Virus genome (UHGV): UHGV-0104313
DNA length: 64,000 nucleotides
Reading direction: 5' to 3' (one strand)
Source: a virus
Part shown: piece by piece, positions 15,183 to 19,031 of the stretch
Position numbering within the stretch: position 1 is the stretch's first letter
Layout: each line of letters starts with the position of its first letter
Made by a program: the position numbers and the translations under genes
The notes under the pieces: model-generated
Databases searched by the model: none
Told to the model about the DNA's origin: nothing
Seen by the model: only the letters and a program-made list of their open reading frames with translations

Positions 15183-15401
15183 TCAAAGTTCCGTATTAGC
15201 TTGTGCTTCGGTCATTTTTCCTAAGTATGAAGGAGGAAGGACTACGCAATTTGTATCCAGTCCCTCACCTATGGCAGCCTGTAAAATTCTGGCTAAGGTG
15301 AGTCTCTTGTTGCGATACCTGGTGATGACATGCCTGATACCGCCGGTCGGCGTAACAAAGGCGATCAGCCAGTAGTGATATTTCCGTCGGAATGGCCACA
15401 T
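15183..15401 (-). CDS. hypothetical protein, 72 aa
   Basis: ORF track; 1-nt gap to downstream gene. Confidence 0.4.
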   Translation of the reverse strand: MWPFRRKYHYWLIAFVTPTGGIRHVITRYRNKRLTLARILQAAIGEGLDTNCVVLPPSYLGKMTEAQANTEL

Positions 15402-15416
15402 AGTGCACCTTGTAGA

Positions 15417-15479
15417 TTGCTCTAATAAAAAACGTGATGAGTGTACATCACGTTTTAAAAATATGGAATTATTAGAGCA
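15417..15479. promoter_or_regulatory. divergent pair of C1-type operator-like 17-mers flanking a 9-bp-stem hairpin
   Basis: ATTGCTCTAATAAAAAA (plus, ~15417-15433) and ATTGCTCTAATAATTCC (minus, ~15463-15479) around AACGTGATG-N7-CATCACGTT. Confidence 0.55.
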
Positions 15480-15482
15480 ATA

Positions 15483-16184
15483 TTATTCTGATTCTCGCTC
15501 AAAAAATGAGCTGATAAGGGGAAGCCAATCCTCTGACACTTCGCGAGGTCGCGGTTTGCCGTGGAAAAAGATTATTCGGCAGTCTTTTGGTAATGCCCCA
15601 TTCCCCCTGGAGTAACGCGCGCTCGCATATTTTGAACCAGGTTCCACAACATCGGCCTTGTAACTTACAAACCATCCTGGATACAGATCCTGAAATGCTG
15701 GTGTATCATCGCCCATAACCTTTCGTAAGAACCCCTGGTCACCCCAGCACTCAGTAGTGACACAACGAGAAATCCAACCTTCCGGATCTTGCCAGAATGA
15801 ACTCCAGATATGCGCTTTAACACTATTTGGTATCCACAGGGCACCGCTGCCACGATATTGTGGATGGTAAAAATCCCTAAGCATGGTGAAGCTGGTTGGT
15901 GGATGCTCTAGGATTGGGCGTATATCACCGGCAATAACCGTGTCCAAATCCAGATAGAACAGATCATCGGTTATATCCGGTCGGAACAACTCGATTTTCG
16001 CCCACCAGCCACGGCACTTTTGCCACTGGTTGATCAATGGGATAACTTTGACGCCAGGTACATGTAAACACTTCAGGTCTGTCAGGCAAATAATTTCATA
16101 GTCTTTTGGCAGTTGATTAACCAGCCACTGCACATCGGAAGCGTTATAGTCACCACCAGAGCGAAGAACTAAAGCAATCTTCAT
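15483..16184 (-). CDS. putative nucleotide-sugar transferase-like protein (DxD-type), 233 aa
   Basis: [11 protein letters not shown] resembles a GT-A DxD motif; weak, by eye only. Confidence 0.35.
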
Positions 16185-16873
16185 GCTGCACCATCACCTT
16201 TCACTTTCATCAATGTCAGGTTTCCGCAAAATACGGCACCAGTGTCGATATACTGCTGATTCCAGAATGTCTTCGGGCTTTTCACCGGAGTGTGACCAAA
16301 GATAAAACGATCTGCGCCCGAAATTTCGCCACCAATATCATCCATCGAATCACTGATACGCTCGCGCGCCCAGACAACGTTGAAAAGCGGCACCTCCTTA
16401 CCGAATTGGTATTCATTATCCGGATAGTCGGCATGGGCTATAACGATAGTTTCTTGCCCGGTGTTCAACTCAATGATATAGGGCAGACGCTTTACCAGCT
16501 CCACCAGCGCCCTGGCTAATATTTCCTGATCAGTGTCCAGCATGAAGAACCATTGTCCGCCATTCATTAGCCAGTTATTCACGTTGCCATCAGGACTTAA
16601 CGCATCGAGCATCAACCGCTCATGGTTCCCCATCACTGCCCTGAACCAGGGCATCTGCAATAGTTCCAGACATTCGACATTTTCAGTACCGCGATCGATA
16701 AGGTCGCCGACCGATATCAGTAAATCCTGCGCCGGGTCAAAATCCACACGATGGAGTTCGGACATCAGTCTGGTGTAGCAACCATGCAGATCACCAACAA
16801 CCCAGACATTCCTGTATTTGGTACCGTCGATACGGTGATAAATTGTGGGTGCCATCATGTATTCTTCAGCCAT
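16181..16873 (-). CDS. ppp: Ser/Thr protein phosphatase (calcineurin-like metallophosphoesterase), 230 aa
   Basis: Signature motifs GDLHG, GDLIDRG, GNHE in order. Confidence 0.8.
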
Positions 16874-17481
16874 TCTTTAAGAGTCATCTGCGGAATACCT
16901 CCCATTTTCCCGCATGAAACAACGTCAATCTGTTCACGCGCAGACTGGAATAACAAAGGCAGGTGACTTAGATTTTTTGGCGTGCCGCCGGAGTGAACGC
17001 GTAGTTCTTGCGTAGCGTCAACGCCCACCAGAGCTACATGTTTGAATCCGATATGGAAAGCCAGGTTCAGAGCACCATATGCACTATTGCCGCTGGCAAT
17101 TTCATTCTCATCTTCGCAAAGGCCGAAATGTGCGGACCAGCGCCACGCCCACCACTCGGGAGAATTCGTATTTTTTGGCTCCATGCCGCGTTCAGCCACA
17201 CGACGGAAGCACAGAACGCCATCTCTGACTTCACGTTCTTTAACATCGGGTAGTGCCATGCAATAACAAACACCACGGCGACGGCGGCCACGACCAACGC
17301 GCCGCATATTGTCTGGGGATGGATCAAGGGTGAAAAAATAAGAAGCGCGGTTAAGCCAGTCGATGGCCCCATTGACCGCTATAATCGGCACTCCGCGCGG
17401 CGCAACAAAGTTTGCGGCGCTTGGGCCACTGCCGACGATAATAACGCGATCACTGCCTCTAAATTTATTCTTGGGAAACAT
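16855..17481 (-). CDS. Rossmann-like protein with GSGPS motif (paralog A), 208 aa
   Basis: [10 protein letters not shown]...IIAVNGA...LVGVD; paralogous to the next gene; resembles DUF115/MAF-like proteins (tentative). Confidence 0.5.
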
Positions 17482-18041
17482 TGAATTGCACTGCTCCTAC
17501 TTGCATTCAAAATATGTAAATCTGCGTGTTTTTTGCGGGTATCCAGGAACTGCTGTTGCCATTTTGAAATAGACACCTGCGTTGGATTCCGTAGTGCTTG
17601 AGGGTGCGCGCCATGCCAATGAAGGCCGTTTTGCAGAGAACAGTCATAGCCGACTAATACCACTACTTCAGCCCCTGATTCAGCAGCCAGACTGATAGCC
17701 TGCGCGCCGCTATTTACCCCTTCCGCCGGTCCACAATATCGCCTGTACTCCAACGAAAATGATTTCGCCGCCGCCAGGTTGGCTGTCACTTTGCGGAATC
17801 TCCCTCCCGGTATGGTGGATCCGTATTGCTTCCACCATGACAAATCACCGGCGTATAAGGCATAAATGTCATCGAACATCTGCCAGGAATTGTTAACCGC
17901 GATGATTGAACAGCCAGTTTTTTCTATAGCAGCACAGTCCTCACGAGTGAGTGACGGTCCGCTACCGACACAAAAAACAGTCCTAGTCGCCCTGGGTGGT
18001 ATGTTCATTCTCAGCTGCAAATTCAGCCTCCAGGCGAGCAT
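17379..18041 (-). CDS. Rossmann-like protein with GSGPS motif (paralog B), 220 aa
   Basis: TVFCVGSGPS...IIAVNNS...LVGYD; overlaps paralog A by ~100 nt in another frame. Confidence 0.5.
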   Translation of the reverse strand: MLAWRLNLQLRMNIPPRATRTVFCVGSGPSLTREDCAAIEKTGCSIIAVNNSWQMFDDIYALYAGDLSWWKQYGSTIPGGRFRKVTANLAAAKSFSLEYRRYCGPAEGVNSGAQAISLAAESGAEVVVLVGYDCSLQNGLHWHGAHPQALRNPTQVSISKWQQQFLDTRKKHADLHILNASRSSAIQCFPRINLEAVIALLSSAVAQAPQTLLRRAECRL

Positions 18042-18204
18042 TCATTTCAGCGATTACAGGGTCCACTACAGCATCTGTTTCCTGTTCATTACGCGGCATG
18101 ACCGATGCCAGCGACTCATAATTAACCTTGGATGACACGATTATTCTCCCGATGTTAAAGCGCACTACCACAAAGAGCTTACATGCACTAATTAATTTAT
18201 TATT

Positions 18205-18783
18205 TTAAGCAGCATGCAACCACTTATCGCCGTTCAATACTTGCTCAATAGCCTCACCCTTTTTAAGACTTATGTATTCCAGGATGGCGGTAATCGCTTG
18301 TTCTGCACCGTACGCAAGAACGACGTAGTAACCTTCCTCTCTAAGCCTGCGCATCCAGGCGATCTGCTCTTTCGTCGGGGCTTTACCATTTGGTTCTTTA
18401 AGCTCAATTCGCATGCCGTGATAAATACCGCATGCTTTATCGAGACTCATGTCCGGATAACCTTTTTTCTGCCCTTCAGCCTTCATTTTCCCGGCGGTTG
18501 CTTTTGAACGTTTCCCTCCGTTAGGCGTTGCATGCAACAGCTCATAGATGTCAGGGTGCTTGCGTTCGAAGTAATCAAAAATGAAAACCTGCTCGAAGTG
18601 CTCGCAATTTCCGTCGCGCAGGTCTGGGTTCTTTGCAAGTGCTGCAAGTGCCTTCGCATGTGGAGAAACTTCTTTTACCGGCGCAAGCGATAAGAATGGA
18701 TCCTTTTTGGTTTTTGGCCTGGACCGCCCCTTATTTCGACGCTCACTAAAAGCCTGAAACTCTTCCTCAGTAAAGCGCAACAT
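18205..18783 (-). CDS. VRR-NUC domain (PD-(D/E)xK) nuclease-like protein, 192 aa
   Basis: D...ELK.PNGK...Q..W...L...GY pattern typical of VRR-NUC. Confidence 0.5.
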   Translation of the reverse strand: MLRFTEEEFQAFSERRNKGRSRPKTKKDPFLSLAPVKEVSPHAKALAALAKNPDLRDGNCEHFEQVFIFDYFERKHPDIYELLHATPNGGKRSKATAGKMKAEGQKKGYPDMSLDKACGIYHGMRIELKEPNGKAPTKEQIAWMRRLREEGYYVVLAYGAEQAITAILEYISLKKGEAIEQVLNGDKWLHAA

Positions 18784-18785
18784 AA

Positions 18786-19031
18786 TCAGTCAAATCCTGC
18801 CGGTCGCATGCCATATTTACGCTGTTTTGCAGCCTGCTCTTCCCTGTGCCATTGCGCACACTCAGCGTCACAATAGATGCCTGATTCGATCGGTTCATTG
18901 CAGTAACGACACTTCCCTGTAAATACCTGGCTCACGACCTGTGCCTGCTTTCTGATGTTATCGATGGCCATGTCTTTGAGAGCTTCTAATTGATTCATGC
19001 TCAGCTCTGCATCATCAACACGTTCTGCCAA
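18786..19031 (-). CDS. TraR/DksA-type C4 zinc-finger protein, 81 aa
   Basis: CRYC-x17-CDAEC four-Cys arrangement after an N-terminal helix. Confidence 0.5.
   Translation of the reverse strand: MAERVDDAELSMNQLEALKDMAIDNIRKQAQVVSQVFTGKCRYCNEPIESGIYCDAECAQWHREEQAAKQRKYGMRPAGFD

Follow-up and report, generated by a model that had tools for sequence, protein, structure and literature searches.

What is the role of a run of enzyme-like genes that a phage can lose and still form plaques? The question arises for positions 15183–19031 of a 64,000-nucleotide stretch of DNA from the virus genome UHGV-0104313 (hereafter the window, meaning the whole stretch that was analysed). An initial annotation had described this locus as an operator-controlled cluster encoding a DxD glycosyltransferase-like protein, a lambda-type Ser/Thr phosphatase, two tandem GSGPS paralogues, a VRR-NUC nuclease-like protein and a TraR/DksA-type zinc finger, and it had proposed a function in host takeover or anti-defence rather than in morphogenesis. 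We find that the segment consists of the annotated phage P1 genes pmgL, pmgM, pmgN, pmgO, pmgP, ppp, pmgQ and pmgR, all on the minus strand, and that three of their products, PmgO, PmgP and PmgQ, form a conserved trio that is widespread among phages and may build a glycan. All the open reading frames (ORFs) listed in that annotation were present on the minus strand; pmgN and pmgR, which lie inside the same coordinates, had been omitted.

The identity of the segment is clear. A megablast search with positions 13000–20000 of the window matched 22 phage records, the top one being vB_EcoM-813R1 (99.7%), and the phage P1 reference genomes matched over the full length with 99.2% identity. Positions 12451–23000 aligned to the P1 record AF234172 colinearly, with 99.1% identity and zero gaps, and only 17 substitutions separate 15183–19031 from P1. 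The region is therefore already known, as a fully annotated part of a P1-type phage-plasmid (AF234172/NC_005856). P1, P7, SJ46, RCS47 and JL22 carry the same pmgL–pmgR region, and the genes, operators and promoters of P1 are those of the window. On the other hand, to the left of ~12450, from the 3' part of pmgT onwards, the window is altogether unlike the P1 reference, which indicates that it comes from a P1 relative, with vB_EcoM-813R1 as the closest. A mosaic breakpoint lies inside pmgT at window positions ~12000–12450, and the pmgT ORF has 242 codons here, compared with 309 in the P1 annotation.

Since 2004, the P1 annotation has labelled these genes with a "putative morphogenetic function". 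Single knockouts of pmgL, pmgM, pmgO, pmgP, ppp and pmgQ left plaque formation unimpaired and antirestriction unchanged (PMC9024508), and the same six genes were non-essential when knocked down by CRISPR interference (CRISPRi) (PMC10695390). None of the proteins from PmgL to PmgQ is present in the published P1 virion proteome. The description of the enzyme genes as accessory is thus borne out.

The PmgO–PmgP–PmgQ trio across phages

The genes of the trio, and ppp, which lies among them in P1, occupy the following positions:

17379–18041, minus strand: pmgO, a Maf/GT42/MptE-like Rossmann protein with a VGSGPS motif, first paralogue
16855–17481, minus strand: pmgP, second paralogue of that fold, also with a VGSGPS motif (PHROG 2111)
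16181–16873, minus strand: ppp, a lambda-type Mn-dependent Ser/Thr phosphatase (1G5B, E 5.8e-95 over 219 residues)
15483–16184, minus strand: pmgQ, a predicted GT8-like retaining GT-A glycosyltransferase (profile and structure model)

Homologues of PmgO, PmgP and PmgQ co-occur well beyond P1. In tblastn searches, they were found together in Citrobacter phage phiNP, in Escherichia phages IME392 and EP_H11, and in jumbo phages of Xanthomonas and Stenotrophomonas. We also scanned IMG/VR, repeating the scan from a distant first sequence, as the first scan had given only P1-type loci, and we scanned genomes with strict search patterns, which yielded 15 loci. When the loci (cited below by our L numbers) were scanned with hidden Markov models, the order O, P, an optional slot, and Q was found in 11 of the 12 first loci, in nearly all of the 28 diverse IMG/VR loci and in most of the genome loci. 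Where identified, the hosts were Proteobacteria without exception. This conserved, widespread trio is the present analysis's own result.

What fills the slot between pmgP and pmgQ varies. It is empty in the P1-like Cronobacter phage JK004, in phiNP and in L011, and it holds a calcineurin-like phosphatase in the P1-type phages and in L122. Elsewhere it contains a GT1-like protein (IME392), GT2-like or other nucleotide-sugar transferases (L100, L111), a sulfotransferase (L014), FkbM or other S-adenosylmethionine-dependent methyltransferases (L012, L096, L109, L114, L119) or, in Xoo-sp13, a TylF-like methyltransferase fused to PmgQ. Furthermore, the trio occurs without pmgL, pmgM or ppp in unrelated phages, and ppp is missing both from JK004, which is otherwise colinear, and from most of the non-P1 copies of the trio. 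We therefore regard Ppp as filling a variable slot and not as a core partner, an independent insertion being more likely than an obligate association. These results do not support the idea that all the enzyme genes form one functional module. The proposed anti-defence module is contradicted by the finding that the six genes are not inherited together.

Could the position of the trio reveal when, and for what, it is used? At least 15 loci have the trio immediately behind an HK97-type major capsid gene and ahead of the head-completion genes (D3, L011, L013, L014, L097, L098, L101, L105, L109, L110, L112, L114, L119, L173 and L185), in the order TerL, portal, protease, capsid, O, P, Q and head completion. 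The lambdoid relatives phiNP, L012 and L102 carry it between the lysis cassette and the terminase genes, and in P1 the gene that follows it is the head-completion gene pmgR. The shared orientation and close packing of the trio with late genes imply expression in the lytic phase. This setting within late and head-gene clusters argues against the phrase "rather than morphogenesis" in the initial annotation.

Some loci are rearranged. In L175–L180, from Pseudescherichia and other Enterobacteriaceae genomes, pmgP and pmgQ are convergent and pmgO lies ~4 kb off. In L007 (Serratia plymuthica), pmgQ precedes pmgP on one strand, and two copies of pmgO on the other strand flank genes for a Big_1-domain protein and a lipoxygenase.

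Folds, relatives and overlap of the trio proteins

The initial annotation had taken the two GSGPS proteins for tandem paralogues, and this was confirmed by profile comparison. Compared by BLASTP, PmgO and PmgP matched only over their motif near the N terminus (E 0.003). When profiles of the two families, with 33 and 39 homologues, were compared instead, they aligned with an hhalign probability of 98% (E 1.7e-13) over 162 columns, which indicates that the two are distant paralogues. Family profiles were likewise required for the comparison with solved structures, in which single-sequence searches with PmgO, PmgP and PmgQ gave noise only. Both PmgO and PmgP have the Rossmann-type fold that is common to Maf, CstI/II and MptE, and the best structural match of PmgO is Maf; in a viral fold library, only DUF115-like phage proteins were matched. 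Their scores against Pfam PF01973 (23.4 bits for PmgO and 20.9 bits for PmgP) fall below the gathering score of 34.6 bits, and a natural PmgO–PmgP fusion protein, P0051, passes it with 44.6 bits.

A further relative is WaaZ, the KdoIII transferase of E. coli (Kdo, 3-deoxy-D-manno-octulosonic acid). WaaZ scored 11.9 bits against the PmgO profile and 13.1 bits against the PmgP profile, and none of 2000 shuffled copies scored above 5.2 bits. The matches are collinear over the SGP(S/T), IAVN(G) and NSA..LA..G.D motifs, and P0051 carries a faint precomputed match to the Pfam family WaaZ_KDO_III. The shared motifs place the pair in a superfamily with the transferases that use ulosonic acids activated by cytidine monophosphate (CMP). 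It is plausible, from the WaaZ similarity and the restriction to proteobacterial hosts, that PmgO and PmgP use a CMP-activated ulosonic acid as a donor, such as sialic acid, pseudaminic acid or Kdo. The similarity itself is marginal (12–13 bits to WaaZ and E 0.2–0.6 to CstII). Unlike Maf, the GT42 enzymes (CstI/CstII) and WaaZ, the phage proteins are catalytic cores alone, of ~200 residues, and they are present as an obligate-looking pair. We found no paper on the function of PmgO, PmgP or PmgQ, including in searches that combined WaaZ or DUF115 with phage.

The annotated start of PmgO (18008–18041, minus strand) is probably too far upstream, as the homologues begin at about P1 residues 12–20. 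Several database entries for P1-type PmgO use later starts, and such a start would shorten the pmgN/pmgO overlap. We also noted a PmgO homologue with 33% identity in Tetraselmis viridis virus S20 (NC_020840, 32102–32689), which was reported from a green alga. The theca of this alga is rich in Kdo. The two facts may coincide by chance, or the entry may in reality describe a bacteriophage.

The third member of the trio, PmgQ, is the glycosyltransferase-like protein with a DxD motif recognised earlier, and this assignment holds. The two aspartates of the motif (D79-L-D81) are invariant in 48 homologues, and a C-terminal FHGxPRP motif is conserved. The PmgQ family profile matched GT8 enzymes (AgtA with E 1.4e-7 and glycogenin with E 1e-4) and aligned with WaaJ (hhalign E 3e-4). 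The structure model (predicted local distance difference test score, 95) matched AgtA (6mw5), glycogenin, WbbM, GlyE and LgtC in Foldseek, all with a probability of 1.0. With the GT8 enzymes glycogenin, AgtA, GlyE, LgtC and WaaJ/WaaO, PmgQ shares the GT-A fold, the DxD motif and a C-terminal H-x-G-x-x-(K/R)-P motif, but it is shorter (233 residues), and its identity to the structural matches is only 13–17%. No Pfam match was obtained at E <= 0.1, and PmgQ hence stands outside the curated Glyco_transf_8 family. We predict, on the basis of the profile and the model, that PmgQ is a GT8-type retaining glycosyltransferase.

Ppp, which occupies the slot in P1, is by its sequence an orthologue of the lambda phosphatase, as had been recognised. 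Its alignment with lambda NinI covers the full length (the P1 record gives 64% identity), and the metal-binding motifs GDLHG (GDxHG), GDLIDRG (GDxxDRG) and GNHE are intact. It scored 59.4 bits against Pfam Metallophos, for which the cut-off is 21.5 bits, and matched PHROG 246, "NinI-like". The settings of the two genes differ: NinI is encoded in the nin region of lambda, whereas Ppp is encoded in the slot of the putative glycosylation module.

The overlap of the two paralogous genes, which had been put at ~100 nt and for which a check for sequencing error or frameshifting had been suggested, measures exactly 103 nt:

17379–17481, minus strand: pmgO/pmgP overlap, 103 nt, in different frames

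Is this overlap a real feature of the pair? In P1-type loci, the stop codon of pmgO lies 55 nt past the first codon of the PmgP GSGPS motif, and no choice of start codon can therefore abolish it. Of the scorable O/P pairs, 155 of 156 showed an overlap (4 to 148 nt long) or a fusion, in a set that comes from overlapping scans and includes many duplicates of P1-type sequences. The length varies by phage (94 nt in phiNP, 70 nt in JK004, 37 nt in IME392 and 4 nt in Xoo-sp13). Conserved parts of one protein sit over unconserved parts of the other: the C-terminal end of PmgO (CFPR..LE) is read over the first 13 codons of pmgP, and the IIVGSGPSA of PmgP is read over the tail of PmgO. The fusion protein P0051 (376 residues) is encoded by one ORF in L008 (7962–9131; metagenomic phage contig SRR30564046_80989), where a pmgQ homologue follows directly and the set lies between lysis and tail genes. 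This recurrence disposes of sequencing error as an explanation. As the genes are overlapping or fused almost everywhere, PmgO and PmgP probably act as a heteromer.

We also considered a programmed −1 frameshift. An A AAU UUA heptamer is present at 17460–17466 (minus strand) in the pmgO frame, and a −1 slip on it would join PmgO to PmgP in the manner of P0051. The heptamer is confined to P1-type sequences and is absent from the other lineages with an overlap; it is therefore probably a chance match.

Operators, transcription units and flanking genes

To locate the control elements, we searched the whole window with the 17-bp asymmetric consensus of the C1 operator, ATTGCTCTAATAAATTT, allowing up to 3 mismatches. 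This gave 10 matches, compared with 0.36 expected by chance. The operator and promoter assignments are those of the GenBank annotation of AF234172, carried over through the colinear, gap-free alignment; the terminator-like element was obtained by RNA folding:

19120–19138, minus strand: LPpmgL, a late Lpa-dependent promoter (sequence inspected)
19089–19105, plus strand: Op82 (O26), C1 operator ATTGCACTAATAATTTT, 2 mismatches to the consensus, in the divergent gene 26/pmgL control region
18182–18198, plus strand: Op83 (Oppp), C1 operator CATGCACTAATTAATTT between pmgM and pmgN, agreeing at 13 of 17 consensus positions
15465–15481, minus strand: Op86a (OpmgRa), C1 operator, consensus match, annotated as control of pmgR and pmgS
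15429–15456, minus strand: 11-bp hairpin followed by a U-run, between Op86a and Op86b
15416–15432, plus strand: Op86b (OpmgRb), C1 operator, consensus match, annotated as control of pmgR–pmgS

Op83 was not recovered by the search with up to 3 mismatches. Op82 overlaps the predicted promoters P1pmgL and P2pmgL, and the −22 box of LPpmgL (19130–19138) is common to the divergent late promoter LP26.

The initial annotation placed the enzyme genes downstream of a divergent double operator. A pair of C1 operator matches is indeed present, Op86a and Op86b, which begin 2 nt past the stop codon of pmgQ. They face each other across the hairpin, and, because the enzyme genes are on the minus strand, they lie 3' of those genes and not upstream of them. 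The operators themselves form an inverted repeat, which gives the element as a whole a folding energy of −26.9 kcal/mol (z = −6.8). From its sequence, the hairpin is the probable terminator of the pmgN–pmgQ unit, and the element may double as terminator and part of the pmgR control region. What survives of the earlier proposal is operator control, but by other operators: putative C1 operators lie upstream of the enzyme genes, Op82 before pmgL and Op83 before pmgN.

This arrangement suggests three leftward transcription units rather than one operon. The first would comprise pmgL and pmgM, transcribed from the divergent gene 26/pmgL region by sigma-70 promoters that Op82 overlaps and by LPpmgL. 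The second would comprise pmgN, pmgO, pmgP, ppp and pmgQ behind Op83 and would end at the hairpin between the Op86 operators; late transcripts that start at LPpmgL probably extend into it. The third would comprise pmgR and pmgS under the double operator Op86a/b. A second, strong terminator-like hairpin is present at 13871–13899 (minus strand), with 6 G-C pairs among its 11 and a TTTTT run behind the stem; it lies 20 nt past the stop codon of pmgS and before pap. The protein encoded by pap (13340–13846, minus strand) shows similarity to polynucleotide kinase-phosphatase, in the HAD phosphatase domain (Pfam HAD_PNKP, 7.8e-12; PHROG 415, "polynucleotide kinase"), and not to a generic acid phosphatase.

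The remaining genes of the segment are as follows:

18786–19031, minus strand: pmgL, 81-residue zinc-finger protein (PHROG 54, "DksA-like zinc-finger protein", E 1.7e-13)
18205–18783, minus strand: pmgM, VRR-NUC (PD-(D/E)xK) nuclease (PDB 4qbl, E 1.3e-17)
17983–18138, minus strand: pmgN, 51-residue ORF (PHROG 2350, function unknown)
15183–15401, minus strand: pmgR, morphogenetic gene outside the enzyme cluster (knockout phenotype)

The relation of PmgL to the TraR/DksA zinc fingers was upheld only in part. The phage family profile of PHROG, alone among those searched, makes PmgL DksA-like; there is no match to Pfam zf-dskA_traR, and the four cysteines are spaced CxxC-x10-CxxxC, compared with CxxC-x17-CxxC in DksA/TraR. 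PmgM, by contrast with PmgL, kept its earlier assignment as a VRR-NUC nuclease. Its GYPD and IELK align with the catalytic core of the phage VRR-NUC Holliday-junction resolvases (4qbl; GYPD...IE(L/I)K), and it matched PHROG 5702, "Holliday junction resolvase" (4.8e-27), with a Pfam VRR_NUC score (21.2 bits) under the 23.8-bit cut-off. Unlike 4qbl, the predicted nuclease PmgM has ~75 extra N-terminal residues. Judging from its family and its place behind a late promoter, PmgM probably trims or resolves branched DNA ahead of headful packaging.

The small gene pmgN was essential by CRISPRi and non-essential by deletion, a contradiction remarked on by the CRISPRi authors (PMC10695390). In contrast to the enzyme genes, pmgR is a true morphogenetic gene: its knockout leaves heads and tails unjoined and can be complemented in trans (PMC9024508). 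Nothing informative on PmgL, PmgM, PmgN, PmgO, PmgP, PmgQ and PmgR came from the PADLOC and NCBIfam scans.

What the trio may build

Taken together, the folds and the gene contexts suggest that the core of the second transcription unit is a three-enzyme module for building a glycan. PmgO and PmgP, with their Maf/sialyltransferase/WaaZ/MptE-like fold, would act together, and PmgQ would act with them. The module would be made in lytic growth and would most likely decorate a component of the virion, the head being the best guess; such decoration would explain why it is dispensable in the laboratory. CMP-Kdo and a hexose linked to uridine diphosphate are plausible donor sugars in E. coli K-12. We consider this account as a whole, with its three transcription units, a late glycan-building trio whose most likely target is the virion, and Ppp in a variable slot, to be evenly balanced between being right and being wrong. 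Its most specific form is more doubtful and is put forward only tentatively: the trio would be the core of a widespread capsid glycosylation system in phages of Proteobacteria, including P1, in which a Maf/WaaZ-like heteromer adds an ulosonic acid (e.g., Kdo) to a head protein, the GT8 enzyme extends it and the slot enzymes tailor it.

Is there a precedent for such a system? Virion glycosylation was reportedly described by Freeman et al. in 2023 in mycobacteriophages such as Che8, Corndog and Myrna. Like the trio, those systems comprise phage-encoded glycosyltransferases and methyltransferases in or beside the structural operon and are dispensable for plaques. They act on capsid or tail proteins, as the trio would do. 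The trio differs in its enzyme families (a Maf/GT42/WaaZ-like pair with a GT8-like enzyme), in its proteobacterial hosts and in the acceptor, as no Ser/Thr-rich tails were found. We know of no phage of Gram-negative bacteria in which virion glycosylation has been shown so far. Several points weigh against a decorated virion. A glycan on a P1 virion protein has never been reported, in proteomic studies that did not look for glycans, and long Ser/Thr-rich C-terminal tails, the acceptors in mycobacteriophages, are lacking from the capsid proteins encoded beside the module. The trio of P1 is distant from the capsid gene 23, the knockouts have no phenotype (PMC9024508), and the gene neighbourhood is merely suggestive.

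The main rival to virion glycosylation is that the trio remodels the core of the host lipopolysaccharide (LPS), the receptor of P1, during lytic growth, with a WaaZ-like pair of Kdo transferases and a WaaJ/WaaO-like GT8 enzyme, and thereby limits superinfection or the loss of progeny on debris. P1 adsorbs to the glucose of the LPS core, and the overexpression of waaZ truncates the outer core. WaaZ is a detectable relative of PmgO and PmgP, with its faint family match on P0051; for PmgQ, there is the profile alignment with WaaJ and the presence of LgtC and WbbM among the structural matches, and the identified hosts are all Proteobacteria. Nevertheless, known phage genes for LPS modification work in lysogens, whereas the trio belongs to late operons and, in the case of P1, is preceded by a repressor operator, and late expression would give little time to replace the LPS of the outer membrane. 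The best structural matches, Maf for PmgO and AgtA, glycogenin and GlyE for PmgQ, act on proteins or protein-bound glycans, and the recurrent site between capsid and head-completion genes would be left unexplained. We regard LPS remodelling as distinctly unlikely. It is improbable, too, that PmgO and PmgP are ATP-dependent pyrophosphokinases, resembling MptE and thiamine pyrophosphokinase, that make a phosphorylated metabolite or an activated sugar for PmgQ, with Ppp in the same pathway; the Rossmann-type fold common to MptE and Maf fits this reading, and the motifs shared with WaaZ point to a transferase.

The proposal with which we began, that the phosphatase, the two nucleotide-binding proteins, the nuclease and the zinc finger are freed upon C1 inactivation to counter kinase- or nucleotide-signalling defence, has in its favour that these are non-essential accessory genes behind C1 operators and that Ppp looks, by its sequence, like an active protein phosphatase. 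Phage phosphatases and phosphoesterases with counter-defence roles have also been described in other, unrelated families; in the phosphatase study consulted, the enzymes have Macro domains and are not lambda-type phosphatases. The genes are not inherited together, the trio being found without ppp, pmgL and pmgM in most lineages and embedded in head-gene clusters. PmgO and PmgP resemble glycosyltransferases or pyrophosphokinases and not signal-degrading enzymes, and the knockouts showed unchanged antirestriction and plating (PMC9024508). PADLOC, whose library covers defence and not anti-defence, gave no match for pmgL–pmgR and only weak coiled-coil matches between PmgS and LmuB. Searches of Pfam, PHROGs, NCBIfam and PADLOC did not reveal a homologue of any known anti-defence protein. 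With no link to defence found, we consider an anti-defence role to be quite improbable. More remote still, and in our judgement very hard to credit, is the glycosylation of phage DNA by the trio as a base hypermodification against restriction. P1 DNA is a standard substrate for restriction and cloning and is known to carry methyl modifications only. GT8-like GT-A enzymes can glycosylate 5-hydroxymethylcytosine in phage DNA (bioRxiv 10.1101/2023.12.21.572611), and the trio adjoins terminase genes in some phages; yet no 5-methylpyrimidine dioxygenase or hydroxymethylase gene was adjacent in the loci that were read, and the unchanged antirestriction of the knockouts speaks against this reading as well.

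As a sequence feature, the segment adds little to what the P1 annotation already holds; its residual interest lies in the function of the widespread PmgO–PmgP–PmgQ module, and the comparative result makes that question testable with the existing P1 mutants. Should the trio indeed glycosylate virions, surface glycans would be present on P1 and on many prophages of Pseudomonas, enterobacteria and marine Proteobacteria, with consequences for immune recognition during phage therapy and for the stability and adsorption of the particles.

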